The notes under the pieces: generated by a model
What the model was told of the DNA's origin: nothing
Databases searched by the model: none
The model's input: only the letters and a program-made list of their open reading frames with translations
Translations under genes and position numbers: made by a program
Source of the DNA: a phage
Strand: one strand, 5' to 3'
Assembly (NCBI GenBank): GCA_008273105.1
Contig: GCA_008273105.1_4080.1
DNA: 64,000 bases
Part shown: piece by piece, positions 2,020 to 64,000 of the stretch
Layout of the letters: every line of letters starts with the position of its first letter
How positions within the stretch are numbered: position 1 is the stretch's first letter

Positions 2020-2024
2020 TTGTT

Positions 2025-6959: not shown

Positions 6960-6960
6960 T

Positions 6961-7452: not shown

Positions 7453-7461
7453 TTTATAATC

Positions 7462-8703: not shown

Positions 8704-9080
8704 CACTCTTCCCCTAGATTGAAATGATTACAAAAATCATCTTCACCAGTACTGCACCAGATGTCTATACATTCTCTGTGAATACATTTAATTCTACGCT
8801 GTAATTCAATCATCTCTTCTAATGTACAGATGTACTTCTTATCAAATACTAATGCCGCCTGAAACAGTGCAGCATCATCAAGTACTGTATAGTCCAACAT
8901 CTCGGTTGCTTTACCCCTAAACCCAGTACTAAAATCCATCAAATAAAAGTCAGCATTCCAGTACTTTAAAATCTTGTCCCTAGCGTAGTTTAAATCACCC
9001 TTGTATAAGTTAGAGTGCGTAACTAACTCACCAGTGTACATCCATGTCCTTGCACAAAATTCATTATATTTTATTTCCAT
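8703..9080 (-). CDS. family-A small protein
   Basis: Motif DDAALFQAALVFD; start set at MEIKYNEF (9080) because upstream 47 aa of the six-frame ORF look like translated non-coding sequence. Confidence 0.5.
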   Translation of the reverse strand: MEIKYNEFCARTWMYTGELVTHSNLYKGDLNYARDKILKYWNADFYLMDFSTGFRGKATEMLDYTVLDDAALFQAALVFDKKYICTLEEMIELQRRIKCIHRECIDIWCSTGEDDFCNHFNLGEE

Positions 9081-9276
9081 CTTAATCTCTACTATAATTA
9101 ATAAGGTAAACTCCAATATAAGGAGAACGTTCGGCGGCGGGGTATTTTTTGTTTCAAGAAACATGAACTGTACTCTGAAAAACACAATATAAAACTTTAT
9201 ATTAAACATATACCTTAGCATGTTTTTCAGCGGAAATTTTTTTGACCCCCCTGCGGCCTGTCAAAATGAAACGTCT

Positions 9277-16423: not shown

Positions 16424-16608
16424 ACGATCTCCGTTCGCAATGAACTTATATAATAATGAATGTATTGTTCCTGTGAACGTGTTCCAAGAAAAATAAACAT
16501 ATCAAACTCTGTTCTTTTTAAATTCAATTCATCTTTTGTTAAACTAGTACTGAATTCCCTGTACTTTTGGGTCTTCCATTCTTGATTAATTGTCTTGTAC
16601 ATTGACAT
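16393..16608 (-). CDS. family-B small protein
   Basis: ORF 71 aa; motif FLGTRSQEQYI. Confidence 0.55.
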   Translation of the reverse strand: MSMYKTINQEWKTQKYREFSTSLTKDELNLKRTEFDMFIFLGTRSQEQYIHYYISSLRTEIVCKTQGIIKK

Positions 16609-16912
16609 ATATGGTTCTTCCTTGTGTGCCTTGTATTAGCCTATCAAACACATCGAGCATCACTTTTTGAATATTAATTAGTACTGGCATCGTGCAAATA
16701 TCAATGTCGTATACTAAGCTGTACTGGAATAATTCATCTTCCTGCATTTGTACTAAATTAGGTAAAGGATAATTGTCTGCCTCTTCATCCTGGTACTTGA
16801 AATGCATAACACCATCCTTTTTGTACAAAAGAATGTCAATATCACCTAACTCTTCTGCATAACCAAAAATACATATACTCGATGTTTTTGCTATATTAAA
16901 TTTCATCTCCAC
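16586..16912 (-). CDS. family-A small protein
   Basis: ORF 108 aa; motif QEDELFQYSLVYD. Confidence 0.55.
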   Translation of the reverse strand: MEMKFNIAKTSSICIFGYAEELGDIDILLYKKDGVMHFKYQDEEADNYPLPNLVQMQEDELFQYSLVYDIDICTMPVLINIQKVMLDVFDRLIQGTQGRTIYVNVQDN

Positions 16913-49568: not shown

Positions 49569-50678
49569 ATGTTACCTTTTGGAAGAATGTTAAAGTATGG
49601 GAATGTAGCACCTGTACCCAAAAAAATAAAGAAAGTTATTGCAGGATATGATAATTTATATGTACTATATGGTGATGGATCGCTATATGGTTGTGGAATC
49701 AATAACTATCAACAGTTAAATATTACTGGAACTACTACACAAAATAAATGGGTACTGATTACAAATGGCGTTAATAATGCATGGGCTGGTGGATATAATA
49801 TTTTATATTTTAAAGAAGATAAATTTATAATGCACGGAACTAATGTCTCATTAGGTTTAGGAAATAATACAATTCCACTAGGTGGAGTAGATGTAACTTC
49901 TTCATTTCCAGATATATCTGATATTAAAATGATATCCATTGGTTTTGATTCAATGCACTATGTTAGTGCTGATGGTAAAATTGTATATGGAAGAGGTATG
50001 AACACAAATGGTTCTGTTGGTTCAGGTAGTACTTACTCACAGAGTACTTTTACTTCAGTACTGAATAATGGCACTAATCAGGTTATTGATATATTTGGTA
50101 ACGTTAATAATACAGTGCTTCTAACGTCAAATGGCGAGCTTCGTGCGTGTGGTACAAGTGCTTATGGTTCCATAGGAAATGAAACTGGTAAGTGGACATC
50201 GTTTGGTTTAAAATTATCTGGCACTAAAATAATGGGTGGTAATGCGTATAGTACGCTTGCATATACAAATGCGGGAATGTACCACACAGGGTGGCAGTTA
50301 AATGGGGAACTGGGAAATGGTTTAGATACTAACGTACAGGTATATCCATTTCAATTTAACTCTAAAACAATAGATAGCAAGATAGATAAAATTGCTAAAT
50401 CATCATCTGGGTCATATGTTAATATGTACTCAACAACAGAAGGAAAGATATATACTACAGGTGCATATGGTAAAAACGGCTCAACTACTGCATTGAATTT
50501 GTTCACCAATACACTAACACTTGAAAATTACAATCCAGATGCCGCAGCGTTGTATACGTGCACAAACTTCAGTGTTGTATATGATGGTAATGAAACTATT
50601 GCTGTAAGTGGTAGTCCTACATATGTACCAGGTGACGTTGCCGCAAATAGATGGACCACAATTCCATTACCCAAGTAA
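49569..50678 (+). CDS. MLPF-leader RCC1-like beta-propeller repeat protein 1
   Basis: Start MLPFGRMLKYGN after AAGGAGG; body has repeated G-x-L/V-Y-G-C/R-G-x-N-x-x-G-x-L/V/I-G-x-G units (YGCGINNYQQL, YGRGMNTNGSVGSG, ACGTSAYGSIGN). Confidence 0.75.
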   Translation: MLPFGRMLKYGNVAPVPKKIKKVIAGYDNLYVLYGDGSLYGCGINNYQQLNITGTTTQNKWVLITNGVNNAWAGGYNILYFKEDKFIMHGTNVSLGLGNNTIPLGGVDVTSSFPDISDIKMISIGFDSMHYVSADGKIVYGRGMNTNGSVGSGSTYSQSTFTSVLNNGTNQVIDIFGNVNNTVLLTSNGELRACGTSAYGSIGNETGKWTSFGLKLSGTKIMGGNAYSTLAYTNAGMYHTGWQLNGELGNGLDTNVQVYPFQFNSKTIDSKIDKIAKSSSGSYVNMYSTTEGKIYTTGAYGKNGSTTALNLFTNTLTLENYNPDAAALYTCTNFSVVYDGNETIAVSGSPTYVPGDVAANRWTTIPLPK

Positions 50679-50684
50679 TACGAT

Positions 50685-50714
50685 GCCAGTACTTGATACT
50701 GGCTTTCTTATTTG
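50685..50714 (+). terminator. intrinsic terminator (cassette boundary)
   Basis: gccagta cttga tactggc hairpin + tttcttatttg T-run. Confidence 0.65.
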
Positions 50715-50747
50715 TATTAAATATAGTATAATGATAAAGGAGGAACT
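50715..50747 (+). promoter_or_regulatory. cassette promoter -10 (TATAAT) and SD
   Basis: gtattaaatatagTATAATgataAAGGAGG; weak or absent -35. Confidence 0.5.
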
Positions 50748-51926
50748 ATGTTACCTTTTGGAAGAATGTTGAATTATGGAAATGAAGCACCGGGCGTACC
50801 AACACCAAAAGATTTCTTTTTGGATGTATCATCCGGCAAACCTACTATGTTGATGCTTTTGGATAACGGCGAAGTATGGGGTTGTAGTAATGATGGACAA
50901 CTATTAGGTTTAAACACTACCGCGTCAGCATACGGTAAGCCATACTTTGTTATGGAAAATGTTAAGTTAATGTTCGCGTCAGTGTGGGGGACATTACTTA
51001 TCACTAACGATAATAAAGTGAAGTACACTGGTAGACAAACCATGTTTAATGGTTCATCTAATTATTGGAGTACTTTTCAAGATTTTACAACGAAGTACAC
51101 GACTGTTGGTATTGACATAAGTACTATAGAAAAAGTTGGATTCAATACTGGTACATTATTCCTACGCACAACTAATGGTGATTTATGGGGTCATGGAAAT
51201 AACGCTAATGGTTATTTCGGAAAAGGAAATACCGTGGCGAATTACACACCAACCAAGATCAAGACTAATACATTAGATTTTTGGTTAACTAATGGGAATG
51301 CAATTGTACAAACTGGCCCTAAAGAATTCTATGCTACTGGTGATAATTATTATTATCAAATGGGTGTTACGACTACTGGTAATATAACAACATGGACACA
51401 GATTTTTAAGGACGCTACTGATGATCCTGAGTTTGAATATAATGCAATGCGAACAAGTCAAGCAACATTAATACTTTACGGTAAAGGAACTACATTCTAC
51501 GCAAGTGGGAGAAACTATATGAGTTCATGGGGTGTATCTGGAGCACCAGTGGATGTTAATACTACACTATATAAAGGTACGTTACCATTTGTACCCGGGG
51601 ATTTAACATATTTTTATGCTGGTCGAGAACAAGCATATTGGACTAACTTAATCATTGATACTAATGGAGTTCTGTACATATCTGGAACAAAAGATGGGGG
51701 TGGTGGTTCAAATGCACCTATATTTGAAGTATTACCAACCCCAAGTAGTGCAGTTGGATTCAAATGTGGTACAGCAACACGTTCTTATGCTATAATGGAT
51801 TGTACTGGCAATCAATTTATGTACGCACGTGGTACAGCTTTGTCAGACCCTGCTGGCTTTACACCAATGAGTACACCATTAAATCATACATGGACACACA
51901 TAACAGATTTTAAATTTAACCGATAA
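50748..51926 (+). CDS. MLPF-leader RCC1-like beta-propeller repeat protein 2
   Basis: MLPFGRMLNYGN leader; repeats of WGCSNDGQLLG / WGHGNNANGYFGKG type. Confidence 0.75.
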   Translation: MLPFGRMLNYGNEAPGVPTPKDFFLDVSSGKPTMLMLLDNGEVWGCSNDGQLLGLNTTASAYGKPYFVMENVKLMFASVWGTLLITNDNKVKYTGRQTMFNGSSNYWSTFQDFTTKYTTVGIDISTIEKVGFNTGTLFLRTTNGDLWGHGNNANGYFGKGNTVANYTPTKIKTNTLDFWLTNGNAIVQTGPKEFYATGDNYYYQMGVTTTGNITTWTQIFKDATDDPEFEYNAMRTSQATLILYGKGTTFYASGRNYMSSWGVSGAPVDVNTTLYKGTLPFVPGDLTYFYAGREQAYWTNLIIDTNGVLYISGTKDGGGGSNAPIFEVLPTPSSAVGFKCGTATRSYAIMDCTGNQFMYARGTALSDPAGFTPMSTPLNHTWTHITDFKFNR

Positions 51927-51932
51927 TATTAT

Positions 51933-51966
51933 GCCAGTACTTGATACTGGCATTTCTTTTTGTATT
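51933..51966 (+). terminator. intrinsic terminator (cassette boundary)
   Basis: gccagtacttgatactggc + atttctttttgtatt. Confidence 0.65.
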
Positions 51967-51997
51967 AAATATAATATAATGAATAAAGGAGGGAAAT
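51967..51997 (+). promoter_or_regulatory. cassette promoter -10 and SD
   Basis: aaatataatataatgaataAAGGAGGG. Confidence 0.5.
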
Positions 51998-53191
51998 ATG
52001 TTACCTTTTGCAAGAATGGTTAAATACGGGAATAAACAGCCTATTCCTGAACCAGTTGAGTTCACTGATGTTTTACAGCAACATTATACTAATGCTATGT
52101 ATCTACATAAGCCCACGAATACACTATACGGTTATGGTGGTAATAACTTGAGCCAATTAGGTCTAGGGAATCAATCGACAGTTTCTACTTTTACAGTACT
52201 GGCAACGCACTGTGCAGCCTTTTGGTTAGGCGTTCATGGATCATTGATGATTGACTTGGATAATAGAATATATTTCACAGGGAATACAGTAGCATTCCCC
52301 GATTATGGAGATGCAACTCCAGTTAATGGTTATTTTAGAACATGGACTGATGTTACTGCCGCATTTAACAAAATAAATATACACGCTAATTTAATCAAGA
52401 GTGTACATATAGGTGAAAGTACTAGAATATTACTACACGATGGAAGAGTCGTTGTTTGTGGTAAAAATGCAAATGCCGAATGTGGAACAGGTAACCAAAA
52501 TCCCATTCCAGTACTAACAGTTGTTACTGGTATGGGTGAAGTTTCTCAATTGGCGTGTTCATTACAGGGTACGCACTATCTCAAAACAAATAAAGAAGCA
52601 TGGTTTTGTGGTAAGGATAACTTTGGTGAAAGTGGTGGTGGGACTAGCTCATACGTTTTTACTAATAAATTAATACGAACCAACGTCGATTATATAAGTG
52701 CTACTTATGATGTTACCTGGTGGTTCACTGCCGGTAGGGTGTACTGGAGTGGTAGAAACAATTCTGGACAAGCTGGGAATGGTACTACTTCAACTACAAA
52801 CCAATTAACTACAGTTCAGAATTCACAGGTTATAGTGAATATTAGTGATGGTTTCCTGTGTCCTAGTAATATGGGTAACTCAACAATTGGTGCACCTATG
52901 GCTCAATACCCATCATATGTCAGGAGTGCAGGCATCAATACATATGGTCAAGAAGGGACGGGAAATACAACAGTAATTACTTCGTGGGGGGCGTTTTCTT
53001 TAAGTGCGATACAGGGTGGATATGACAATGTTCTTATGGCATCCAAAGACTGGTCCAGAACAATAATTATAACTAAAGATTATAAATTATATGCATGTGG
53101 GGGCTTTAACGGTTCAGGTGGTAACTTACCGGATGGTACTTCCTTAATTAAAACATTAACATTAATGCCAACGCAGTTATGGCAACAATAG
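51998..53191 (+). CDS. MLPF-leader RCC1-like beta-propeller repeat protein 3
   Basis: MLPFARMVKYGN leader; repeats YGYGGNNLSQLGLG, VCGKNANAECGTG, WSGRNNSGQAGNG. Confidence 0.75.
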   Translation: MLPFARMVKYGNKQPIPEPVEFTDVLQQHYTNAMYLHKPTNTLYGYGGNNLSQLGLGNQSTVSTFTVLATHCAAFWLGVHGSLMIDLDNRIYFTGNTVAFPDYGDATPVNGYFRTWTDVTAAFNKINIHANLIKSVHIGESTRILLHDGRVVVCGKNANAECGTGNQNPIPVLTVVTGMGEVSQLACSLQGTHYLKTNKEAWFCGKDNFGESGGGTSSYVFTNKLIRTNVDYISATYDVTWWFTAGRVYWSGRNNSGQAGNGTTSTTNQLTTVQNSQVIVNISDGFLCPSNMGNSTIGAPMAQYPSYVRSAGINTYGQEGTGNTTVITSWGAFSLSAIQGGYDNVLMASKDWSRTIIITKDYKLYACGGFNGSGGNLPDGTSLIKTLTLMPTQLWQQ

Positions 53192-53199
53192 GAGGGAAT

Positions 53200-54309
53200 A
53201 TGTTACCTTTTGGAAGAATGATTAGGTATGGAAATATTGTCCCTGGTCCTAAAAAAATAATTAAAGTTGGTGCTTCTACCCAAGGCCAATTCTTATTGAC
53301 TGATTCACATGATTTATATTACATAGGTAGAAATCAAGGTGGTGAATCTGGAAATGGTAATACCAACACGGTATCTTCATGGATATTAGTAAGTGCAGAT
53401 GTTTCTAATTTTTTCGTGGGTGATCGTACACTTGTTATTATTAAAAATGATAATACTATATGGACATCAGGTCAAACGTACTGGTTCTCATCTTCTACAA
53501 CTACTTCTTACAGTACTGTATTAGTTGAAAGGACTAGTTGGTTTACCAATGCTATACCAGTCAGTGAAATTGCTAATATTGTATGCACAAATGGTTTAAT
53601 ATTTGTACTTAGCACTAATTCAGTACTCTATGGTGCAGGAGATAATGGATATCGTGGTTCTTTGGGTATTGGTTCCTCATCAATTTACACATTAACTCAA
53701 TGTGCTACGAACGTTCGTAAAGTAATGACCAATGCGAATGATAGTATATATCTTACATTAGATAATAAGCTATATAGTTCTGGATGGAATAGTAGTGGGC
53801 AGCATGGTACGGGGAACCAAACACAAATTAACACTTGGGGATTGCGTAGTTCTGGTGTAATCGATGCAGCCATTGGTGGTAATGCATTAAATTACTATAA
53901 TGGTACATCATATTTCGTATGTGGTCAAACTCCAAACTTTCTTAGTTCAGGTACGACTACATTCCGTGCAGTTCCTTTAAGTACTTTGCCTAATAGTTCT
54001 CCGTTGTTTATGACGAATTCACCTGCCTTAAATACTGCTACACAAATGGTAATTACTAGTACATATCAGAAGGGTGTTGGGGCGAACCGTGGTTTGGGAT
54101 TAAACAATTCTCAAACTGGTGCTATATATAGTGCTACCAATTTACAATTACCCGTTGAAGTTAGTGAGATTAGGGATGTTCTTTTTAGTGATGGTTTGAC
54201 ATCGATATTAACCAAAAATGGAGATGTGTATAGTACTGGATCGTATTACGCCATTCCAGGTGCAATCGAGGATGTTGCAGTCTTTACTAAAATTGATTTA
54301 CCAAAATAA
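53200..54309 (+). CDS. MLPF-leader RCC1-like beta-propeller repeat protein 4
   Basis: Start MLPFGRMIRYGN 8 nt after stop of gene 3 (TAG overlaps AGGAGGG SD); no terminator/promoter cassette, so likely co-transcribed. Confidence 0.75.
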   Translation: MLPFGRMIRYGNIVPGPKKIIKVGASTQGQFLLTDSHDLYYIGRNQGGESGNGNTNTVSSWILVSADVSNFFVGDRTLVIIKNDNTIWTSGQTYWFSSSTTTSYSTVLVERTSWFTNAIPVSEIANIVCTNGLIFVLSTNSVLYGAGDNGYRGSLGIGSSSIYTLTQCATNVRKVMTNANDSIYLTLDNKLYSSGWNSSGQHGTGNQTQINTWGLRSSGVIDAAIGGNALNYYNGTSYFVCGQTPNFLSSGTTTFRAVPLSTLPNSSPLFMTNSPALNTATQMVITSTYQKGVGANRGLGLNNSQTGAIYSATNLQLPVEVSEIRDVLFSDGLTSILTKNGDVYSTGSYYAIPGAIEDVAVFTKIDLPK

Positions 54310-54315
54310 CATAAT

Positions 54316-54346
54316 GCCAGTACACTGTACTGGCTTTCTTATTTGT
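54316..54346 (+). terminator. intrinsic terminator (cassette boundary)
   Basis: gccagtac act gtactggc + tttcttatttg; loop differs from other copies, stem conserved. Confidence 0.65.
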
Positions 54347-54379
54347 ATTAAATATAGTATAACAAATAAAGGAGGGAAT
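54347..54379 (+). promoter_or_regulatory. cassette promoter -10 (TATAAC variant) and SD
   Basis: gtattaaatatagTATAACaaataAAGGAGGG. Confidence 0.45.
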
Positions 54380-55519
54380 ATGTTACCTTTTGCAAGAATG
54401 GTTAAGTACGGGAATATCGCACCTGAACTGATTCTACCTAAAAACAGGTTACAATGTTCTGCTGATGCCAAATTTTATTTACACACAAATGGCAATCTAT
54501 ATTGGTTTGGTTCTTCAGCATATGGACAAAGTGGTAATAGTTCATTGGACTCTTCAACTGAATGGACTCTTGTCAACTCAAATGTTACACGATATTGGGG
54601 TGGGGTACAAGGAACAATTGCTATAAAGAAAGATGGTACTATTTGGTACACTGGTAGACGTACTGTTATTCCAATACTATCTTCAAACACTAACGGCGTT
54701 TGGGTTGATATAACACAGAACTTTACTGATTTCGGTGTCAGTGCAGATGATATTGATAGTGTTGTGATATCTTCGTGTATGCGTGTATTTTTAAAAAATG
54801 GAAAGTGGTTCTACTGTGGTGCTGGTACTGGTGGTGTTTTTGGGAATGGATCAACTTCAAGCGTTTCACGATTCACCTATAGTACAATAGAAAATGTTAT
54901 CAGTGCTGGTTGTGCAATATATAGTACTGGATTAGTACTAAATGATGGTTCATATTGGTATGCAGGTAGAACGTTTGTATCAGGAACGACGACACAAAAC
55001 TTGCTCACATTTACACAAGATACTTCGATTAGTAATGCAATTAAAGCAGTCAATACAAATGAAACTTCTTATATATTTCTTAATGATGGTAATGTTAAAG
55101 TTGCATCTATTAACGACTATGGACAAGCAGGTACAGGAAATAGGTCAGTAGCCCCAATGAGTACATTAATTCCAAATTTATCATTCCAAGGAGAAGTGGA
55201 GTTGGTGGGTGAGCTTGGGACAAACCTTACCGGACCATCCTGTATAATTAATAATAATAATAAGTTATTTTCATGTGGCCTTAATTCAAATGGTCAATGT
55301 GGTATTGGTACAACTGATATGTATATAACATCATTCGCTGAAATGGATCTTACTGCATTAGAAGGTAGTAATCTTAGTAGTTTTTGTAAGAGCTATTCTT
55401 ATACGATGTTAGTTGACGAATATAATAATTTATACACATGTGGTGTACCCAATCTTACTGGAATGTCTTCAACTACTGTACCAACAAGGGTTCCTGATTC
55501 ACTTCTACCGTGGAAATAA
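54380..55519 (+). CDS. MLPF-leader RCC1-like beta-propeller repeat protein 5
   Basis: MLPFARMVKYGN leader; repeats WFGSSAYGQSGN, YCGAGTGGVFGNG, SCGLNSNGQCGIG. Confidence 0.75.
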   Translation: MLPFARMVKYGNIAPELILPKNRLQCSADAKFYLHTNGNLYWFGSSAYGQSGNSSLDSSTEWTLVNSNVTRYWGGVQGTIAIKKDGTIWYTGRRTVIPILSSNTNGVWVDITQNFTDFGVSADDIDSVVISSCMRVFLKNGKWFYCGAGTGGVFGNGSTSSVSRFTYSTIENVISAGCAIYSTGLVLNDGSYWYAGRTFVSGTTTQNLLTFTQDTSISNAIKAVNTNETSYIFLNDGNVKVASINDYGQAGTGNRSVAPMSTLIPNLSFQGEVELVGELGTNLTGPSCIINNNNKLFSCGLNSNGQCGIGTTDMYITSFAEMDLTALEGSNLSSFCKSYSYTMLVDEYNNLYTCGVPNLTGMSSTTVPTRVPDSLLPWK

Positions 55520-55525
55520 TATAAT

Positions 55526-55556
55526 GCCAGTACACTGTACTGGCTTTCTTATTTGT
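55526..55556 (+). terminator. intrinsic terminator (cassette boundary)
   Basis: gccagtacactgtactggc + T-run. Confidence 0.65.
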
Positions 55557-55590
55557 ATTAAATATAGTATAATGAATAAAGGAGGGAAAT
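55557..55590 (+). promoter_or_regulatory. cassette promoter -10 and SD
   Basis: attaaatatagTATAATgaataAAGGAGGG. Confidence 0.5.
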
Positions 55591-56739
55591 ATGTTACCTT
55601 TTGTAAGAATGATGAATTATGGGAATATTGCCCCTGGTAAGGATAGGCGTTTTAAAATATATTCAAGTGATTCTATGTATCTTCATGATACTTATACTAA
55701 TAAGTTGTATGCATCTTCTGCGACGAATTGGGGTACTGGAACAGGTGTAGCATCGAGTAAATTTATTCTTTGTGCAGAGAATGTTAAACGAGTTCTATTG
55801 GAAGATAACAGTAGTAGTTGTCAATTGTATGAAGAGAAAGGTACTGGAAAAGTTTTTATCACTGGTAACACGAAGGCATTCACTGGTGTAACTGATACAA
55901 AAACTTTGTGGACGGACTGTACTACGTGGATAACATCAGGTGGTATTAATGTTTCTGATATAAAATACATGAGTAGTTTTAATGATATGAAGGTGAATTT
56001 GATAACAAACGATGGTACGTTGTATTGTTGTGGAGTTAACAATAACTCGAACCTATCATCATTTGGTGATGGTACAAACATTAATTCTTTTAACACATTC
56101 AAAAGGGTAGATACTATAACTTCGGTTAAAAAGGCAGTTGGTAACATATACCTAAAAGAAGATAATACTTTATGGGGTTGTGGTTTTAACTATTACTATC
56201 AGTTAGGTACAGGTAATCAAACTTCTATTACTGGGGTGACGATGATTTCTTCGGATGTTATAGATTTTGATGTAAGTTATCAGAGTACATTTTTTATTAA
56301 ATCGGATAATAATTTGTACGCTTGTGGTAAACAGTTCGGTGCACAATACGGGAACGAATTTGGCACAGGTGGTACTTCTTCATCTACCGATATACAATAC
56401 AAAACTCCGACATTATTGAGTTCGGGAGTTTATACTCTATATACGTGTGTTAGTAACATGGCATCACATATAGCTAAAGGTGATGAAGTTCTATACGCAT
56501 CTGGGTCGAATGGATTTGGTCAATTAGGTGTTGGTAATAATATTAATCAGTACTCATATACTCCTTCGTATACTTCGTTTAATAGTTCGTGTAATTTGGT
56601 ACGCACTCCATCTGGTTCACTTATACTTACGGACACTGAGCAATTATATTATTGTGGGTATGCTATGGTAGTAATGGGGGGAATTGCTGGACAAAACATT
56701 CTTAGTTATACAGAAGTTGATATGTCATTTATACAATGA
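55591..56739 (+). CDS. MLPF-leader RCC1-like beta-propeller repeat protein 6
   Basis: MLPFVRMMNYGN leader; repeats YCCGVNNNSNLSSFGDG, WGCGFNYYYQLGTG, YASGSNGFGQLGVG. Confidence 0.75.
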   Translation: MLPFVRMMNYGNIAPGKDRRFKIYSSDSMYLHDTYTNKLYASSATNWGTGTGVASSKFILCAENVKRVLLEDNSSSCQLYEEKGTGKVFITGNTKAFTGVTDTKTLWTDCTTWITSGGINVSDIKYMSSFNDMKVNLITNDGTLYCCGVNNNSNLSSFGDGTNINSFNTFKRVDTITSVKKAVGNIYLKEDNTLWGCGFNYYYQLGTGNQTSITGVTMISSDVIDFDVSYQSTFFIKSDNNLYACGKQFGAQYGNEFGTGGTSSSTDIQYKTPTLLSSGVYTLYTCVSNMASHIAKGDEVLYASGSNGFGQLGVGNNINQYSYTPSYTSFNSSCNLVRTPSGSLILTDTEQLYYCGYAMVVMGGIAGQNILSYTEVDMSFIQ

Positions 56740-56745
56740 TTTAAT

Positions 56746-56776
56746 GCCAGTACAGAGTACTGGCTTTCTTATTTGT
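56746..56776 (+). terminator. intrinsic terminator (cassette boundary)
   Basis: gccagtac aga gtactggc + T-run. Confidence 0.65.
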
Positions 56777-56810
56777 ATTAAATATAGTATAATGAATAAA
56801 GGAGGAATTT
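56777..56810 (+). promoter_or_regulatory. cassette promoter -10 and SD
   Basis: attaaatatagTATAATgaataAAGGAGG. Confidence 0.5.
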
Positions 56811-58001
56811 ATGTTACCTTTTGTAAGAATGATGAATTATGGGAATATTGTCCCAGTACCACTTCAAATTAAGAAAATAATCCCAACTGATTTAGATGTT
56901 GTTGTTCTGTATACGGATGGTCAACTATATGCACGTGGGAATAATAGTTTTGGGAAATTTGGTAGGGGAAACAACACTGCATTAAAATCATGGACATTAA
57001 TTAGAGAAAACGTTAACGATTGCTGGGTTACACAAGGAACTTTATTAGTAAAAGATAATGACTCAAATTATTTTTATTGTGGATATGGTGATCATGTTGG
57101 TTTACCAACTAGTACTACTACGTTTTTAAGTTATAACCAATATATTGAAAATTTGTACACGCAAAGTTCAAGTACTTCAATTAAACAGATGTATGGAGGT
57201 ACTACGTGGTTTACGGTATTAATGGATAATAATACAATATGGAGTACTGGTTGGAGTGGGGCTAGACAATTCGCTGATGGTACTGGTAGTACTCAACAAA
57301 TAACAGATGGATCATTTGTAAAAGCTGTCACGCCTAATGTTGATATTGCACAAATACTGTCAACAAATAACTGTGTAATGTTTTTTGATACACAAAATAA
57401 TTTATATATTGGTGGTGGTACGTCAGGTATAAGTACCAGTACCACATGGACACCATTTAATGAATATACTTTATATAAACCAAGTACAACATACACAAAA
57501 ACGTTACAATACACTGGATGCTCAAGTGGTGCAGTCAGTGCTTTGGTTGAGAATCCAAGTACTGGTGCACGTCAGTTTCTAGTTGGTGGTTTAGCGAGTA
57601 ATGGTGCATGGGGTAACAATACCACAACCAGTTCGGCAATTGCTGTATTAGGGAGCAATAGTACGACATTACCAACTGGAACTTTGTATTCAATTCATAC
57701 AGGATACCCAACACAATCTAGTATACTAGTTACGAGTACTGGTGTATATGCAACTGGTTTAAATGCGAGTAGTTATGCTGGTTCGTTGGGTGTTGGTTCT
57801 AATGTTACTATTGGTAGATTTACTATATGTCCAATGCCAGCAGAAATATCATATTCTATGTATGATAAAATAAAAATATATCGCGGTTCGTATCGTACTT
57901 TTCTAACTGCTGATATGAAAAATATATATTCAACCGGAACGTATGATGATGGTGGTCCTAGTACAAATAGATATGTTCTGGATACACCTAGACAATTGTA
58001 A
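56811..58001 (+). CDS. MLPF-leader repeat protein 7 (RCC1-like, more divergent)
   Basis: MLPFVRMMNYGN leader; YARGNNSFGKFGRG and Gly/Thr-rich repeats. Confidence 0.7.
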   Translation: MLPFVRMMNYGNIVPVPLQIKKIIPTDLDVVVLYTDGQLYARGNNSFGKFGRGNNTALKSWTLIRENVNDCWVTQGTLLVKDNDSNYFYCGYGDHVGLPTSTTTFLSYNQYIENLYTQSSSTSIKQMYGGTTWFTVLMDNNTIWSTGWSGARQFADGTGSTQQITDGSFVKAVTPNVDIAQILSTNNCVMFFDTQNNLYIGGGTSGISTSTTWTPFNEYTLYKPSTTYTKTLQYTGCSSGAVSALVENPSTGARQFLVGGLASNGAWGNNTTTSSAIAVLGSNSTTLPTGTLYSIHTGYPTQSSILVTSTGVYATGLNASSYAGSLGVGSNVTIGRFTICPMPAEISYSMYDKIKIYRGSYRTFLTADMKNIYSTGTYDDGGPSTNRYVLDTPRQL

Positions 58002-58008
58002 TAATTTA

Positions 58009-58039
58009 GCCAGTACAAAGTACTGGCTTTCTTATTTGT
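58009..58039 (+). terminator. intrinsic terminator (cassette boundary)
   Basis: gccagtac aaa gtactggc + tttcttatttg. Confidence 0.65.
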
Positions 58040-58072
58040 ATTAAATATAGTATAATGAATAAAGGAGGAAGT
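58040..58072 (+). promoter_or_regulatory. cassette promoter -10 and SD
   Basis: attaaatatagTATAATgaataAAGGAGG. Confidence 0.5.
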
Positions 58073-59206
58073 ATGTTACCTTTTGGAAGAATGGTTAAGT
58101 ACGGAAATAAAAGACCATCTAATAATATCAAAAAGATTTCATGCACAACCAATAACAGTGTTTTGGTGCTCACCGAAAGTGGAGATTTGTATGGTTTTGG
58201 ATTCAATTCAGGTGGTGAACTTGGCACTGGTGCAACAACTAGTGTTACTTCAGTTATTCAAATTGACACTGGAGTTGATGATGTATGGGGTGGCAGTCTA
58301 TGTGCAATGTACAGAAAAGGCGATGAATTCTTTGGTAGCGGGAACGGTTCTTATTATGGTTCAAGTACTGTTAACTCAACCACATTTGTAAATGTAACAC
58401 ACATATTCCAAGATATAGATATTCTTAATATTAAGAAAATTAAAATGACAACAGGTTTGTTTATATTAATGCAAAACGGCAACTTATATGGATGTGGGGT
58501 AAACACCAATTGTCAATTTGGTACTGGTGAGGCAGGGAATTTTCGTTATCCTATAGCTACATTAACACAAACGGATGTTGTTGATTTTGATATTTTAGGA
58601 AACGCTAGTATAATATTAAAGACCGATGGGTACATGTACAGTGCGGGTGATAATGGTCGTGGACAACTTGGTAGTGCTGCCGCAACCACAGTTCTGGTAT
58701 ATACACAAATTAGTAAATTTCCAAATGTAACCAATTTGAATCTGTTCGGATGCACACAATCCTGTTCATTATTCAAAGATAGTGATGGTAAAACGTGGTT
58801 GAGTGGTAATAGTTATGGTATTGATTACCCAGTAGTAGCTACAACATTATTCAGTAAAGAAGCACCAGTACCTGAAGGTACATTTAGATTTATCCACACG
58901 AGATCAGGGGCAAATTCACCAGTAATATGTACACCCACTGGGTATTATGTTGCTGGTACTAACCCTTATGGTGCATATGGTATAGGTACAAATGTAACTC
59001 TGACTGCATACACTAGAATGGATTCAATGGATAATTACATATCAAATTATAATGATGTTCCTGTGTTTGATGGTTGTTTCTATGGGACATATTTTGCAGT
59101 CGGAGAACGTCTGTTTGGTGCAGGTAATGGAAATTTAGGTAATGTTCCAGGATATACTGGAACACAACGTAACTATGTAGAAATTAATTATAAAAATAAA
59201 CCTTAA
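58073..59206 (+). CDS. MLPF-leader RCC1-like beta-propeller repeat protein 8
   Basis: MLPFGRMVKYGN leader; repeats YGFGFNSGGELGTG, YGCGVNTNCQFGTG, YSAGDNGRGQLG. Confidence 0.75.
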   Translation: MLPFGRMVKYGNKRPSNNIKKISCTTNNSVLVLTESGDLYGFGFNSGGELGTGATTSVTSVIQIDTGVDDVWGGSLCAMYRKGDEFFGSGNGSYYGSSTVNSTTFVNVTHIFQDIDILNIKKIKMTTGLFILMQNGNLYGCGVNTNCQFGTGEAGNFRYPIATLTQTDVVDFDILGNASIILKTDGYMYSAGDNGRGQLGSAAATTVLVYTQISKFPNVTNLNLFGCTQSCSLFKDSDGKTWLSGNSYGIDYPVVATTLFSKEAPVPEGTFRFIHTRSGANSPVICTPTGYYVAGTNPYGAYGIGTNVTLTAYTRMDSMDNYISNYNDVPVFDGCFYGTYFAVGERLFGAGNGNLGNVPGYTGTQRNYVEINYKNKP

Positions 59207-59212
59207 TACAAT

Positions 59213-59243
59213 GCCAGTACTTGATACTGGCTTTTCTTTTTGG
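59213..59243 (+). terminator. intrinsic terminator (cassette boundary)
   Basis: gccagtacttgatactggc + ttttctttttg. Confidence 0.65.
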
Positions 59244-59276
59244 TTAAATATAGTATAATGAATAAAGGAGGGAATT
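59244..59276 (+). promoter_or_regulatory. cassette promoter -10 and SD
   Basis: gttaaatatagTATAATgaataAAGGAGGG. Confidence 0.5.
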
Positions 59277-60014
59277 ATGTTACCTTTTGCAAGAATGGTT
59301 AAGTTCGGGAATAAAATTGAATATAAGCCACATGGTGAACAATTAATCACGACAATAGGAACAACACAATTTACAGTTCCTGCTGGCGTTACCGAAATAT
59401 CAGTATGTGTTATTTCGCCGGGTGGTCAACGTGGTGCTGGTGGCGGCTTATCGTGGCGTAATAATATTCCGGTTTCTGGTGGTGAGTACTTAAGTGTTTC
59501 TCTTACACATCCCAACACTACTACAGCAGTTGAAAACGGTTTATATCGTGGAACTGAAAAACTATGTGTTAGCTTCACTGGTGAATATAGGGTTGGTGGA
59601 CTAGGTGGGAAAGCTGCTAACGCTATTAATGATGGTGGTGGTAATGGGGGCAACGCTGGTGTAAGTGGTGGTGCAGTCATTGGTGGTGGTGCTGGTGGCT
59701 ACACTGGTAAAGGTGGTAACGGAGATGCAATCACTGGTGAAAATGGTGCTGGCGGCGGCGGTGGTGGTGGTGCATTCTATAATACCTCGTTCATTGGTAC
59801 GGGTGGTGGTACTGGTATCATTGTTCAAGGTGCTAATGGTATTGGCGGTAGATACGATGGTTCATATAATGGTGGTGCTGGTAGTGGTGGTGCTGGTAAG
59901 ATGTATGGTGGTGGTGGTAGTATATGGGATAATTTTTCTTATACGGCTGCTGGTGGTGGTGCTGTGCGAATAATATGGGGACGTGGGAGATATTATCCTA
60001 ACAATTCAGTCTAA
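59277..60014 (+). CDS. MLPF-leader glycine-rich protein (non-RCC1 cargo)
   Basis: Same leader MLPFARMVKFGN fused to a Gly-rich body (GGGNGGNAGVSGG, GAGGGGGGGAF, GGAGSGGAG) unrelated to the propeller paralogs. Confidence 0.7.
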   Translation: MLPFARMVKFGNKIEYKPHGEQLITTIGTTQFTVPAGVTEISVCVISPGGQRGAGGGLSWRNNIPVSGGEYLSVSLTHPNTTTAVENGLYRGTEKLCVSFTGEYRVGGLGGKAANAINDGGGNGGNAGVSGGAVIGGGAGGYTGKGGNGDAITGENGAGGGGGGGAFYNTSFIGTGGGTGIIVQGANGIGGRYDGSYNGGAGSGGAGKMYGGGGSIWDNFSYTAAGGGAVRIIWGRGRYYPNNSV

Positions 60015-60021
60015 AATATAG

Positions 60022-60052
60022 GCCAGTACTTGATACTGGCTTTCTTATTTGT
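60022..60052 (+). terminator. intrinsic terminator (cassette boundary)
   Basis: gccagtacttgatactggc + tttcttatttg. Confidence 0.65.
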
Positions 60053-60085
60053 ATTAAATATAGTATAATGAATAAGGAGGGAATT
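60053..60085 (+). promoter_or_regulatory. cassette promoter -10 and SD
   Basis: attaaatatagTATAATgaatAAGGAGGG. Confidence 0.5.
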
Positions 60086-61228
60086 ATGTTACCTTTTGGA
60101 AGAATGGTTAAGTACGGGAATATTGCACCAGTTCCGGTAGTTCCTACAATAAAAGATTTTAAGATTGGCTTTTCGCATGAAGTGTTATTGGACAGTGCAG
60201 GTGATGCATGGGGTATTGGATACAATACAGATGGGCAGTTAGGCTTTTTGGATGCAAATACCAATTCACTAGGTGCGTGGTCTAAGATATATACTGATGT
60301 TCGATTAATTGGAGTTACTGCTAGATATACAGTGGTAGTTACTAATAATAATAGAATCCTTTACGCAGGAAATAACTTAATTTCTAGTACTACTACTCTT
60401 GGGTGGACCGATATAACTGCCAGTATGGGTCCGGTTGCGGTGGATAGCATCGATGCATTATATTGCACAGATGGTATGATGCATATTAAAACTTCAGATG
60501 GTTCTTTATATGCATATGGTCGTAACATGAACGCAAACAGTGGTGTTACTGGTGGTGTTATTAGTGTTGCAACTAAGGTTAATTTGCCTTCTGCTGTAAA
60601 TGACATGCGATATACGTTTAGTTATGGTTCAGTACTATGTCGATTGGATACGACTTCTATATACGCATGGGGACGAAACACAAATGGTGAATTAGGCCAG
60701 GGTAATACAACAGCTATCGTTACACCAAAACTATTGTCTGGTGCTTCTATTGCAATGGGTACTTCGTATAATGCTACTGCAATTGTTTCTGGTTCTGCAT
60801 CGTTAGTTACGTGTGGTGGTCAGAACAGTGGTCAGTTGGGTAATGGTATTACTACTGATGGTAATGTTTACGTATATGCTGCTAGAACATACCCTGGCGA
60901 TCTTAATACTATAAGAAGTCCAGTGGATTGTAGTACAACGTACACCTCTGCATTTATGAGTCCAGATGGTATATATTACACTGGTGCTAACCGAAGCATG
61001 TTTGGTGGTATTAGTGGTGCTGCTACCGTTGGTGTATATACTAAATGTAGTGATTTACCAATAACATATTCTAATATAATTCAGTGGGGTAGTGGTACTA
61101 TTGGTGGTGCTATATGTAGTAGTACAGAGTTATACCAATGTGGCATCGGTCGATACATTGCTGGAGATGGTGCGAGCACAACCAGGTATGGATTTAGGAA
61201 GACCCCATTACCTTGGGATGTTTATTGA
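60086..61228 (+). CDS. MLPF-leader RCC1-like beta-propeller repeat protein 10
   Basis: MLPFGRMVKYGN leader; repeats WGIGYNTDGQLG, YAYGRNMNANSG, WGRNTNGELGQG, CGGQNSGQLGNG. Confidence 0.75.
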   Translation: MLPFGRMVKYGNIAPVPVVPTIKDFKIGFSHEVLLDSAGDAWGIGYNTDGQLGFLDANTNSLGAWSKIYTDVRLIGVTARYTVVVTNNNRILYAGNNLISSTTTLGWTDITASMGPVAVDSIDALYCTDGMMHIKTSDGSLYAYGRNMNANSGVTGGVISVATKVNLPSAVNDMRYTFSYGSVLCRLDTTSIYAWGRNTNGELGQGNTTAIVTPKLLSGASIAMGTSYNATAIVSGSASLVTCGGQNSGQLGNGITTDGNVYVYAARTYPGDLNTIRSPVDCSTTYTSAFMSPDGIYYTGANRSMFGGISGAATVGVYTKCSDLPITYSNIIQWGSGTIGGAICSSTELYQCGIGRYIAGDGASTTRYGFRKTPLPWDVY

Positions 61229-61234
61229 AATAAT

Positions 61235-61268
61235 GCCAGTACTCAAGTACTGGCATTTCTTTTTGATT
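61235..61268 (+). terminator. intrinsic terminator (cassette boundary)
   Basis: gccagtac tcaa gtactggc + atttctttttg. Confidence 0.65.
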
Positions 61269-61299
61269 AAATATAGTATAATGAATAAAGGAGGGAAGT
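61269..61299 (+). promoter_or_regulatory. cassette promoter -10 and SD
   Basis: attaaatatagTATAATgaataAAGGAGGG. Confidence 0.5.
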
Positions 61300-62475
61300 A
61301 TGTTACCTTTTGCAAGAATGGTTAAGTATGGGAATATTAAACCTGCACCTTCGGGTGTATTAAAGATTAGTACATCTGTAACACATATGGGTATGTTATT
61401 TGATAGTGGTAACTTATATCTACGTGGGCGTGGTGCATATTATATGCTAGGAAATAATAGTACTGAGTATGTACAAAATGGGTGGGTACTTTGTCCATAT
61501 AAAGTTTCTAATGTTTGGTGTTTATTCGCAGGGACAATTATACTTACGACTGACGGAGAATTTTACTTAGCAGGGCAAATGAACTATCTCGGTGTATCTG
61601 CATCACCTGTTCCTGGATGGACTAATATTACATCTATATTGTCTACAATTCCAAGCCTTACTACAGTTCAAGATATAGCTTCTACCGAAACTACCGCATT
61701 TAATGGTTCTTTATTAATTCTGTTAAGTGATGGTAACTTATATGGGATAGGCCGTAATGCTGGGGGTGAATTGGGTGTTACTGGAATACAATCAACACCT
61801 ATTTTGATTAACACGGGTGTTACTTTAATCGCAGGAACACAGTCGGGTGGTGCTTTCCATTTTGTAAAAAATGGACAATATTACAGATGTGGTAATAATG
61901 CAAGTTATAACCTAGGTACAAGTTCATCTAAACTATCCACATTTACAGTAAGTACTGATATATCAGGAACAGTTATTGGTATTTCATGTACTACTGAAAC
62001 GACTTCAGTACTTACATCGAATAATGGTAATATTACAGTATATACGGCTGGAAAAAACACTGATTATTGTTTAGGAATAGGGTATGGAGACACTACGATT
62101 ATCATGAGTCCATTTAGTGCTACTCCCGCAATTAGTGGGATTATACCAGATGCTGCTTCGATGAATAACCACAGTTTGAATTATTTTATAATGGCAATGA
62201 CACAGAATGGTAAACTTTATACATGTGGTAGTGGTGTTCCTCTGGGTTGGCCTCCTTCTAGTGCATCAGAAAGATCTTCTTACCACCAAGTACAATATGA
62301 GGATATGGATATTGCTCCAGATGTTAATGCATTTGCAGTACAAGGTGGTTCTGGTGTGTTATACGCGTTAGTGGGGACTAATGAGGTGTACTGGTGTGGT
62401 AATGGGTCTATGTTTCAGGAACAGAGTCCGGGTACACAACAAGTTAAAATGAAGAAAATGATTTTACCAGAATAG
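61300..62475 (+). CDS. MLPF-leader RCC1-like beta-propeller repeat protein 11
   Basis: MLPFARMVKYGN leader; repeats YGIGRNAGGELG, RCGNNASYNLG. Confidence 0.75.
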   Translation: MLPFARMVKYGNIKPAPSGVLKISTSVTHMGMLFDSGNLYLRGRGAYYMLGNNSTEYVQNGWVLCPYKVSNVWCLFAGTIILTTDGEFYLAGQMNYLGVSASPVPGWTNITSILSTIPSLTTVQDIASTETTAFNGSLLILLSDGNLYGIGRNAGGELGVTGIQSTPILINTGVTLIAGTQSGGAFHFVKNGQYYRCGNNASYNLGTSSSKLSTFTVSTDISGTVIGISCTTETTSVLTSNNGNITVYTAGKNTDYCLGIGYGDTTIIMSPFSATPAISGIIPDAASMNNHSLNYFIMAMTQNGKLYTCGSGVPLGWPPSSASERSSYHQVQYEDMDIAPDVNAFAVQGGSGVLYALVGTNEVYWCGNGSMFQEQSPGTQQVKMKKMILPE

Positions 62476-62483
62476 GAGTGAAT

Positions 62484-63626
62484 ATGTTACCTTTTGCAAG
62501 AATGGTTAAGTACGGGAATATTATAATCCCCCTTGATATAAAAAAAGTTGATTTAACAATAAATGGTTGTATAATACTTACAAGTGATGGTAAATTATAT
62601 GCAAGTGGGACTCAATCAGCAGGTCAATTTGGATTAGGAAATAGAACAACACTTACAGTACGTACATTAATAGCCGAAAATGTGGTTAATTTTTGGTTTA
62701 GTCAGTCTGGATTAACTATTTTAAAAAATGATAGTTCATATTGGTTTAGTGGAGCAGCATATGCATATGGAGATAGTGGTAATGTTTTTATTAACATTGA
62801 TAGTTTAATCAAAGACAAATTTGACAATGCGAGCGAAATATATGTTGCACGTGATCATGCAACTGTTATTGTAAACGCCGATGGTTCAGTTTGGGTTTTA
62901 GGTTCTAATTTATATGGTATGATTGGGTTAGCAAGTACTACAACATACGCCCCTACATGGACACAAAATACAAACCTTACTGGTGTTTCTAAAATGCAAT
63001 TTGGTCATCTGAACGCATGTGGAATAAGATCGAATGGCGACGTTGTTGCGTGGGGTGAGAACAGATTCAACTGCTTCACAACTGTGGGCGGTACTGGTTA
63101 CCTGACACCAAGAGTAGTTAAGTCAAATGTGATTGATTTTTATTTAACTGCAACATCTTGTTTTATGTGGAGTGATGCTACTTCAGTTTATTTTAGTGGC
63201 TATACTGGGGACACTGGATTATTAAATTCTGCGGCTGGTAGTACCTTTCAGTCATACAATATATACAGTGTAGCTCAACCGGAAACATATGTAAGTTCAG
63301 AGTTTCGTTTTATAAAGCATACAAACTACAACTATGGTAATGCTGTTAACTTACCAGTATACGTTAAATTTAGAATTAATGGTGAAGTTTATAGTAGTGG
63401 ATATAACTTAAGTAGTAGTTTGGGGGTAAATTCCGTTTCCACCAGCGTAAAAAATACAACTTTAGTTCCAGGTGCATCAAAAATGACATCGTGGGTGGCT
63501 GGTGATACTAATGTTAAATTAGCTACTATTGATGGTAGTTTATATGGTGCAGGTAACGTACAATATATTTTAGATAAACCAAGTCAAGAAATATATCCCA
63601 CATATCAAAAATTAAATATAATATAA
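62484..63626 (+). CDS. MLPF-leader RCC1-like beta-propeller repeat protein 12
   Basis: Start MLPFARMVKYGN 8 nt after stop of gene 11 (TAGGAG overlap); no cassette, likely co-transcribed. Confidence 0.75.
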   Translation: MLPFARMVKYGNIIIPLDIKKVDLTINGCIILTSDGKLYASGTQSAGQFGLGNRTTLTVRTLIAENVVNFWFSQSGLTILKNDSSYWFSGAAYAYGDSGNVFINIDSLIKDKFDNASEIYVARDHATVIVNADGSVWVLGSNLYGMIGLASTTTYAPTWTQNTNLTGVSKMQFGHLNACGIRSNGDVVAWGENRFNCFTTVGGTGYLTPRVVKSNVIDFYLTATSCFMWSDATSVYFSGYTGDTGLLNSAAGSTFQSYNIYSVAQPETYVSSEFRFIKHTNYNYGNAVNLPVYVKFRINGEVYSSGYNLSSSLGVNSVSTSVKNTTLVPGASKMTSWVAGDTNVKLATIDGSLYGAGNVQYILDKPSQEIYPTYQKLNII

Positions 63627-63636
63627 AGGAGGGAAT

Positions 63637-64000
63637 ATGTTACCTTTTGGAAGAATGTTAAAGTACGGAAATATTAAACCAACTCTTCCTGAAATAAAGA
63701 AATTGGATGGTAGTCAATTACATGTCGGATTACTTTATAGTACAGGGAATATGTACATGCGTGGTTCTGGTTCGAACTATAAATTAGGTACAGGGGATGC
63801 TAGTGATGTATTCGGTGGTTGGGTACATGTACCCTATGAAGTTGATGATTTTTGGGCGTGTGTATCCGGTACATTAATAAAGACTGTTGATAATAAATTA
63901 TATTGTGCAGGTCTATACATGGGTGGATATTTTGGGGCTAGTGGTTCATATGTTAACTGGACTGAAGTAACTTCATTATTTGTAGGTATTGACGTGTCGC
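63637..64000 (+). CDS. MLPF-leader RCC1-like repeat protein 13 (3' end beyond window)
   Basis: Start MLPFGRMLKYGN 10 nt after stop of gene 12 with AAGGAGGG SD; frame open to window end. Confidence 0.7.
   Translation, partial: MLPFGRMLKYGNIKPTLPEIKKLDGSQLHVGLLYSTGNMYMRGSGSNYKLGTGDASDVFGGWVHVPYEVDDFWACVSGTLIKTVDNKLYCAGLYMGGYFGASGSYVNWTEVTSLFVGIDVS

Follow-up and report, generated by a model that had tools for sequence, protein, structure and literature searches.

A short N-terminal leader shared by RCC1-like propellers and an unrelated glycine-rich protein of an Asteriusvirus jumbo phage as a putative virion-docking peptide

Conserved N-terminal anchors are familiar among phage receptor-binding proteins, in which one element joins differing distal domains to a common site on the particle, as with the second depolymerase of KP32-type Klebsiella phages and its short conserved N-terminal peptide or, in adenovirus, the fibre-tail motif directed to the penton base. 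As a rule, a virus uses such an anchor on no more than one or two fibre-type proteins, which have homologous shafts. The capsid-targeting sequence of the T4 proteins IPI-III and Alt is likewise N-terminal, ~10 residues long and portable between unrelated cargos, and it sets incorporation into the particle; it ends in a gp21 cleavage site (L/I-x-E) and its cargo lies inside the head. Among adhesins, gp24 of the cyanophage Pam3 (PDB 7YPX; related to the S16/T-even gp38 adhesin tips) carries a TNF-like plus glycine-rich head behind a helical N-terminal domain through which the fibre attaches to the baseplate (PMC9608196). A further near system is formed by the tail wing brush gp33 and tail spike gp29 of mycobacteriophage Bxb1 (PDB 9D93), a siphovirus of Actinobacteria, in which gp33 is recruited via gp30 and not by direct contact with the tail core (PMC12646305), and in which there is neither a shared leader nor a family of alternative heads on one attachment element. 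Here we describe, in a 64,000-nucleotide stretch of phage DNA (contig GCA_008273105.1_4080.1; the window, at its full length), a 12-residue N-terminal leader starting with MLPF that heads a series of RCC1-like propellers as well as the unrelated glycine-rich (Gly-rich) protein of the open reading frame (ORF) 59277-60014 on the plus strand. While N-terminal anchors with variable distal parts are a known principle, and the fold family that the Gly-rich head newly joins is known already, this leader differs from known anchors in being only 12 residues long, in heading 10-15 paralogues per genome and at least four unrelated globular folds, and in being swapped as a unit between phage lineages. We propose that it is probably a modular peptide for docking interchangeable binding heads on the virion.

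At 91-99% nucleotide identity, the stretch 58000-61300 agrees with jumbo coliphages of Asteriusvirus, among them 121Q, JP4, E9.1, and phAPEC6, and by this match the window can be assigned to Asteriusvirus as a 121Q-like jumbo coliphage. The 121Q counterpart of ORF 59277-60014 is gene 243, a "hypothetical protein" amid genes labelled "regulator of chromosome condensation." The ORF encodes 245 amino acids, opens with MLPFARMVKFGNKIEYKPHGEQ, and has MLPFARMVKFGN as its leader. The pattern M-L-P-F-[GAV]-R-M-x-x-[YF]-G-N opens 13 plus-strand ORFs in the array 49569-64000 (starts at 49569, 50748, 51998, 53200, 54380, 55591, 56811, 58073, 59277, 60086, 61300, 62484, and 63637, the last ORF being cut by the window end), comprising 12 RCC1-like propellers and, in ninth position, the Gly-rich protein. 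Three array members have Pfam RCC1/RLD matches. In an alignment of the 11 complete RCC1 paralogues, the bodies share just 20-26% mutual identity, and residues 1 to 12 hold 9 of the 15 invariant columns. The initial annotation had called the leader of the Gly-rich ORF identical to that of its neighbours; the leader is indeed shared, but not to the letter, since it agrees at 11 of 12 residues with MLPFARMVKYGN (cassettes 51998, 54380, 61300, and 62484), with F10 in place of Y10. Phenylalanine at this position occurs in this protein only among the 92 leader proteins that we collected, and the orthologues of 121Q, phAPEC6, and Sharanji have Y10. The same annotation had seen no RCC1 repeats in the Gly-rich body, and this was borne out: a Pfam scan returned no family at E <= 1, RCC1 included; BLASTP against an RCC1 neighbour aligned residues 1 to 26 only; and profile-profile comparison of the Gly-rich family with the RCC1 paralogues (hhalign) gave a probability of 0.14%. 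On these comparisons, the Gly-rich protein is unrelated to its RCC1 neighbours beyond about residue 20.

A degenerate DNA pattern of the leader was scanned through IMG/VR and a metagenome collection, and the leader was found there only in jumbo phages of about 350-380 kb, namely, 121Q-type phages, GAP32, CBB, Serratia phage BF and its Erwinia relatives, and four uncultured genomes of ~355-371 kb (UViG_3300012988, UViG_2029527005, UViG_3300042256, and UViG_3300031417). In these related phages, the consensus is M-[LI]-P-F-x-R-[MIL]-x-x-Y-G-N, and the forms met outside the window include MIPFARI[SV]KYGN and MLPF[PST]R[LMI]..Y[GA]N. The collected leader proteins of at least 150 residues amount to 92 distinct sequences, with bodies in 10 BLAST clusters; RCC1 and Kelch proteins were merged in this clustering via an RCC1+Kelch fusion protein, and the classes were parted by Pfam. 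At least four cargo classes stand behind the leader: RCC1 propellers, Kelch propellers (281-307 residues), Laminin_G_3/ConA-like proteins (about 205-260 residues), and the Gly-rich head. The initial annotation had advised searching other genomes for further cargo types, and the Kelch and Laminin_G_3/ConA-like classes are the yield of that search. The fusion-type arrangement is illustrated by a 667-residue protein (L041 8416; UViG_3300031417_000002) in which a single leader, MLPFQPLLVYGN, precedes an RCC1 propeller and then a Kelch propeller. The same N-terminal element is found on proteins with non-homologous distal domains, as is characteristic of a modular attachment element. Some pattern matches were set aside as chance, namely, those in L018, L019, L026, and L039, which open ORFs of 12-17 codons, and those in L035/L045, where the ORF has 548 codons, no Shine-Dalgarno sequence, and lies on ~20-kb contigs.

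Published mass spectrometry (MS) of purified virions was mapped onto these sequences. In phAPEC6, gp003, gp005, gp006, gp007, gp009, and gp010 were detected (PMC7247149, Table 1), and all six start with MLPF and are RCC1 proteins. The phAPEC6 record (L013, MK817115) leaves four intact leader ORFs unannotated (3-1145, 2434-3543, 6063-7253, and 7325-8059), the last of which is the Gly-rich ORF, within which the record instead has gp004 (7716-8018), a spurious ORF in another frame. If the spectra were searched against the predicted proteome, these four proteins would have been undetectable, and the absence of the Gly-rich protein from the list is therefore uninformative. In the "hairy" Pectobacterium phage CBB, the virion proteins include CBB_144, with 5 unique peptides and 34% coverage, together with CBB_536, CBB_537, CBB_551, and CBB_552 (PMC5259590, Table 4). 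CBB_144 is a homologue of the Gly-rich protein and opens with MLPFSPLIVYGN; CBB_536, CBB_537, CBB_551 (Laminin_G_3), and CBB_552 (Kelch) all start with MLPF, and CBB_548, CBB_549, CBB_550, CBB_553, and CBB_554 also bear the leader. Six MS-verified structural proteins of CBB are listed as absent from GAP32, the group among which the authors expected whisker proteins (PMC5259590), and the five detected leader proteins CBB_144, CBB_536, CBB_537, CBB_551, and CBB_552 all belong to it. From GAP32 itself, gp001 was reported as identified by MS (PMC5259590); it is an RCC1 protein that opens with MLPFSRIIQYGN. Altogether, the published MS places leader-bearing homologues of the RCC1, Gly-rich, Laminin_G_3, and Kelch classes, as well as CBB_536/537, in virions. 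For the Gly-rich gene, the ratio of nonsynonymous to synonymous substitution rates among Asteriusvirus strains was uninterpretable (1-10 synonymous differences, ratios of 0.6-2.4; the CMSTMSU copy, frameshifted and in an "UNVERIFIED" record, was left out), so that its coding constraint rests on the distant full-length homologues and on the MS of CBB_144.

The leader is under selection as a peptide. In the window, 121Q, and phAPEC6, its first seven codons are invariant even at synonymous sites; among the window paralogues, TAT/TAC and GGA/GGG vary. In UViG_3300012988 and UViG_2029527005 (~360 kb), the conserved leader positions use CCT/CCA/CCG, GCA/GCG/GCT, AGA/AGG/CGA, TAT/TAC, and GGA/GGT/GGG, and many leader genes are without the promoter/hairpin cassette and follow dissimilar upstream DNA, the peptide being kept. 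Synonymous variation of the codons combined with dissimilar upstream DNA therefore shows selection on the peptide and not on a DNA cassette. In AlphaFold models, the leader also lies outside the predicted folds of both proteins examined. For the Gly-rich protein, the mean predicted local distance difference test score (pLDDT) is 50 for residues 1-10 and 67 for residues 11-20, with later blocks above 94; for the RCC1 cassette 60086, the corresponding values are 52 and 63, with ~80-90 for the body. The confident bodies begin at about residue 20-21 in both models, and within the leader the RCC1 model has no more than a weak helix at residues 4-9. The idea that the leader supplies the last strand of the propeller, velcro-like, was rejected, since it falls outside the confident RCC1 model and is also present on non-propeller folds. 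By inspection, without a predictor, MLPFARMVKFGNKIEYKPHGEQ contains neither the hydrophobic core (>=7 residues) nor the Cys of a Sec or lipoprotein signal, and its single Arg cannot form a twin-arginine (Tat) motif; a Sec- or Tat-type form of the secretion signal offered among the early options was set aside on this basis. The leaders of the window cassettes contain no Glu and hence no T4-type prohead-protease site (L/I-x-E), even though their length and position do fit a capsid-targeting sequence; in the wider collection, Glu occurs in 9 of the 92 leaders, at the variable position 9 only, with no conserved cleavage context following it.

The body behind the leader belongs to a family of about 250-residue phage proteins (phrog_4474 match, E 1e-67; 182 database homologues). 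A 56-member alignment shows a conserved start, G-Q-x-x-F..W.VP.GVTSI, and a conserved end, GAVRIIWG..R.YP, the body setting in with G-[EQ]-x-x-[FI] around residue 21. Glycine makes up 70 of the 245 residues (29%), and 41% within residues 111-232. The early label of a low-complexity protein was nevertheless misleading, for the body is predicted to be well folded, the AlphaFold model from the 56-sequence alignment reaching a pLDDT of 92.7 and a predicted template modelling score (pTM) of 0.89. The fold comes closest to the receptor-binding head, TNF-like plus glycine-rich, at the tip of the tail fibre of Pam3, and all the best structural matches are peripheral tail appendages. As in heads of the Pam3 gp24/ALK-GRD-like type, a beta-sandwich is followed by a lattice of extended glycine-rich segments with GGGxGG motifs. 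An N-terminal helical domain for docking or trimerisation, as in Pam3 gp24, was not found in the model, residues 1-19 being without confident secondary structure. Likewise, Pfam gave no significant match of the window protein to PF21722 (Gly_rich_2), a domain carried by more distant homologues and matched weakly, below the cut-off, by the paralogue at L002 9176-10000; the tie to Gly_rich_2 runs through homologues and fold rather than through a direct model match. From its modelled fold, the gene product would be a receptor-binding head of the tail-fibre type, which may bind a host receptor. Sequence identity to Pam3 gp24 is only 16%. Moreover, whereas Pam3 gp24 docks by a long N-terminal helical bundle that also trimerises, the window protein would be a Pam3-type head in which the docking domain is replaced by the 12-residue leader and an 8-residue linker, and its cassette has no apparent adjacent chaperone gene, unlike Pam3.

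The same cargos carry another N-terminus in other phages. Beside the MLPF leader, we observed a second leader, M-x-E-[LIM]-[LM] (MLELL, MIELL, MNEMM, MLEIM, MLESIL, MLENLL), on Gly-rich and LamG-like accessory proteins (proteins P0005-P0035; loci L002 8134-10744; L048 2917-3579 and 4335-5000; L049 2935-3576; L050 1304-1948 and 2977-3630). Its hosts are rV5-like phages (CR8, PVP-SE1, and a Plesiomonas contig) and the unrelated jumbo phages Erwinia pEa_SNUABM_37 and Serratia PCH45. The Gly-rich cargo is headed by MLPF..YGN in Asteriusvirus and CBB and by M-[LI]-E-[LM]-[LM] in rV5-like and many other phages; in two 345-residue Gly-rich homologues, MLELL still opens the protein and is separated from the Gly-rich body by an insertion of about 100 residues. 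The cargo of CBB_536/537, which has no Pfam assignment and is likened in the CBB record to Salmonella phage 19 SP19_190, has homologues that align from about residue 19 only, and these open with MLEIM/MNEMM in Cronobacter phage CR8, MLESIL in Erwinia phage pEa_SNUABM_37, and MLENLL/MLETIL in Serratia phage PCH45. On an rV5-like contig, three adjacent genes upstream of the terminase carry the second leader, one with a weak, sub-threshold Laminin_G_3 match (E 0.018) and two being Gly-rich. In these comparisons, leader type follows phage lineage and not cargo, for the Gly-rich and LamG-like cargos alike. If leaders co-evolve with a lineage-specific acceptor or partner, such a combination of two cargo families with two leader types is to be expected, and M-x-E-[LIM]-[LM] seems to take the place of the MLPF leader in myoviruses of other lineages. 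The context of the Gly-rich homologues in PVP-SE1 and in a 216-kb contig was uninformative, both being singletons without leader-sharing neighbours.

Cargo diversity, selection at the level of the peptide, the pLDDT profiles, lineage tracking, and the published virion MS are five independent lines in favour of the early proposal of a functional tag that is not part of a fold, and among the functions then listed for it, virion attachment seems the best supported. We infer that the leader mediates incorporation, that the proteins are external on the particle, and that their heads bind host surface structures. In the model that we propose, the first 12 residues would act as a self-contained docking peptide, followed by a short, variable, often Pro-containing linker to an exchangeable head. 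The leader could be a short amphipathic element, with conserved hydrophobic positions 2, 4, 7, and 10 and with Pro3 and Gly11-Asn12 as caps, and would bind one common acceptor site on the virion. Candidates for this acceptor are the hair-like fibres and the decorations that 121Q, phAPEC6, and CBB bear on head and tail; hair-like fibres of unassigned composition have been described on both head and tail sheath of these phages (PMC7247149, PMC5259590, PMC7824862). Adhesin-like heads of several kinds would then be mixed on a single particle, and new heads may be recruited by placement behind the leader. A stronger form of this proposal, in which any folded protein would be loaded onto a dedicated hair or decoration acceptor if, and only if, it carries the leader, with M-x-E-[LIM]-[LM] as a second, lineage-specific tag of like function in rV5-like and other large myoviruses, is doubtful enough that we put it forward only tentatively.

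Several points weigh against docking. MS reports association with purified particles and not external location; the peptide counts for the RCC1 proteins are low (1-4), and no peptide-level data that would show retention or cleavage of the leader were found in the available CBB supplements. The Gly-rich protein of Asteriusvirus was never detected, the phAPEC6 ORF having presumably been outside the MS database. The leader proteins are globular and, at 22-42 kDa, too small to be the ~119 nm hairs by themselves, and GAP32, for which hairs are not reported, also encodes leader proteins. Moreover, the 92 proteins were gathered with the leader pattern, and their conservation at the patterned positions is partly built in. 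Within Asteriusvirus alone, gene conversion could be the cause of leader identity.

The last point leads to the reading in which the shared 5' end has no peptide function at all and reflects gene conversion, recombination, or selection on translation initiation, the Gly-rich gene having simply landed in a cassette. The seven invariant codons in the window, 121Q, and phAPEC6 would fit it, as would the contrast between bodies of 20-26% identity and a near-identical stretch from -66 to +36, and so would the differences in array order among strains, which indicate cassette exchange. We nonetheless consider it very improbable: it is largely contradicted by the synonymous leader-codon variation of the metagenomic phages, where, as in CBB, many operon-like leader genes keep the peptide without the cassette and behind dissimilar upstream DNA, and it fits poorly with the TAT/TAC and GGA/GGG variation among the window paralogues and with cassettes 53200 and 62484, which keep the leader without promoter or hairpin. 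If the peptide matters, it might still act inward. In size and position, it resembles the ~10-residue targeting sequence of the T4 internal proteins, and it could direct its cargos into the prohead core as internal or inner-body proteins, perhaps ejected with the DNA. MS, giving virion association without location, is compatible with such a destination, and phAPEC6 has an inner body of unassigned composition for which its authors proposed the RCC1 proteins as candidates (PMC7247149). Yet the leader, devoid of Glu, contains nothing like the maturation sites of T4 (L/I-x-E) or phiKZ (S/A/G-x-E; PMC13282480). The cargos, moreover, have lectin-like, propeller, and adhesin-tip folds; the structures that come nearest to the Gly-rich body all belong to appendages on the outside of tails; and dozens of divergent paralogues with strain-variable array content resemble host-range modules. 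Capsid targeting of the T4 type therefore seems unlikely.

The reader of the leader could also be a non-structural factor, for instance a dedicated chaperone, an enzyme that modifies the proteins, or a system that cleaves or degrades them, and virion association, where it occurs, would then fall to the cargo domains themselves. Glycine-rich fibre heads do need dedicated chaperones, as with Pam3 gp25 and T4 gp38/gp57A, but these known chaperones bind the distal head and not an N-terminal peptide (PMC9608196). The invariant F4, R6, Y10, G11, and N12 resemble a linear recognition motif, and that an acceptor has not come to light is in keeping with this explanation; on the other hand, four unrelated folds would each need a route of their own to the particle, and the set of CBB-specific virion proteins detected by MS coincides almost entirely with that of the leader bearers. 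The shift of leader type with lineage while the cargo stays constant fits a structural partner at least as well. We hold the involvement of a non-structural factor to be quite unlikely, and virion docking to be the probable role of the leader.

A full-text literature search with leader strings and with Asteriusvirus plus RCC1 returned no description of the leader. The CBB paper lists some of the leader genes as paralogues, their shared N-terminus being unremarked (PMC5259590), and the Sharanji paper does not discuss the leader/RCC1 genes. The hairs of 121Q-type phages, phAPEC6, and CBB have been seen by electron microscopy for years, with their proteins and attachment unassigned (PMC5259590, PMC7247149, PMC7824862); the leader now defines a compact set of candidates for hair-associated proteins, that is, every MLPF-headed protein, together with a testable attachment mechanism. 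The label "regulator of chromosome condensation / DNA condensation" on dozens of these genes is probably misleading, and the products may be better read as interchangeable binding heads displayed on the virion. As for the Gly-rich gene, it is "hypothetical" everywhere and, in phAPEC6, displaced by the spurious out-of-frame ORF. Should the tag be sufficient for loading, phage display or the engineering of host range would gain a natural handle of very small size. If it were both necessary and sufficient, these phages would possess a natural peptide-tag/acceptor display system, cohesin-dockerin-like in logic but with a 12-residue tag, and lectin-like heads would coat each particle in combinatorial fashion; in 121Q, phAPEC6, and CBB, the hair-associated proteins, long without assignment, would thereby be identified, and a ready handle for displaying foreign proteins would be at hand.

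The cassette of the Gly-rich gene has the promoter, Shine-Dalgarno, and terminator context that the initial annotation had reported as shared. It begins behind a terminator-like hairpin with a T-run that ends the preceding RCC1 cassette (59213-59241, plus strand; GCCAGTACTTGATACTGGC, stem 59213-59231 followed by TTTTCTTTTT), whose arms are GCCAGTAC..GTACTGGC; the same hairpin stands ahead of most cassettes. A promoter-like box, TAAATATAGTATAATG, follows at 59245-59260 on the plus strand and may function as a promoter: it has 11 matches in the window at <=2 mismatches, all ahead of array genes, against a chance expectation of 0.31. A Shine-Dalgarno sequence, AAGGAGGG, is read directly at 59265-59272, 4 nucleotides ahead of the ATG. 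On the plus strand, the ORF then divides into the leader (codons 1-12, 59277-59312; 11/12 match to the four RCC1 cassettes, pLDDT about 50), a linker (residues 13-20, KIEYKPHG, 59313-59336) that is variable and gapped among the 56 aligned family members and has a pLDDT of about 67, and the cargo (residues 21-245 and stop, 59337-60014), modelled as a TNF-like beta-sandwich followed by a glycine-rich domain of the polyglycine-II type ending in GAVRIIWG..R.YP. The cassette closes with another terminator-like hairpin and T-run (60020-60052, plus strand; stem 60020-60042, then TCTTATTTGT).

Over the stretch from -66 to +36, the Gly-rich ORF is identical to the other promoter-bearing cassettes at 89-96 of 102 positions, and to the first cassette (49569) at 81 of 102. 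Cassettes 53200 and 62484 keep the leader without the promoter-like box or the hairpin; their genes start 6-9 nucleotides past the preceding stop codon, with a Shine-Dalgarno sequence only, and are therefore probably co-transcribed with the upstream cassette. The ORF list extends two cassettes, at 58055 and 60068, to an ATG inside the promoter/Shine-Dalgarno region (MNKGGSMLPF... and MNKEGIMLPF...); the position of the Shine-Dalgarno sequence and the conservation of the leader indicate that the true start is the Met of MLPF. The motif GGGAAT occurs twice in 59258-59312, in the Shine-Dalgarno region (59270-59275) and in leader codons 11-12 (59307-59312). A metagenomic variant of 206 residues, P0002 (MNKGGNKIEYKPH...), is the exact product of a deletion between these two repeats, by which the leader is lost and an upstream ATG at 59258 is fused in frame; an internal Gly-rich segment is also absent from it. 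This variant may be a real copy, leaderless or defective, or else an artefact of assembly.

Array content and order vary among strains that are otherwise 91-99% identical, which suggests that cassettes are exchanged via the conserved ~100-nucleotide junctions. In 121Q (L001 7791-9790), the homologue of cassette 56811 and the Gly-rich gene are direct neighbours, in this order, and in the window (56811-60014) an extra RCC1 cassette (58073-59206) lies between the two. A homologue of this extra cassette is present in the metagenomic contig L015 and is not among the 121Q leader ORFs that were recovered. On the minus strand, at 1657-9221 and 16586-16906, the window also holds small ORFs that form two paralogous families, each of six (e.g., the tandem at 4066-7452, and 7462-9221), which are further evidence of tandem gene duplication in this genome.

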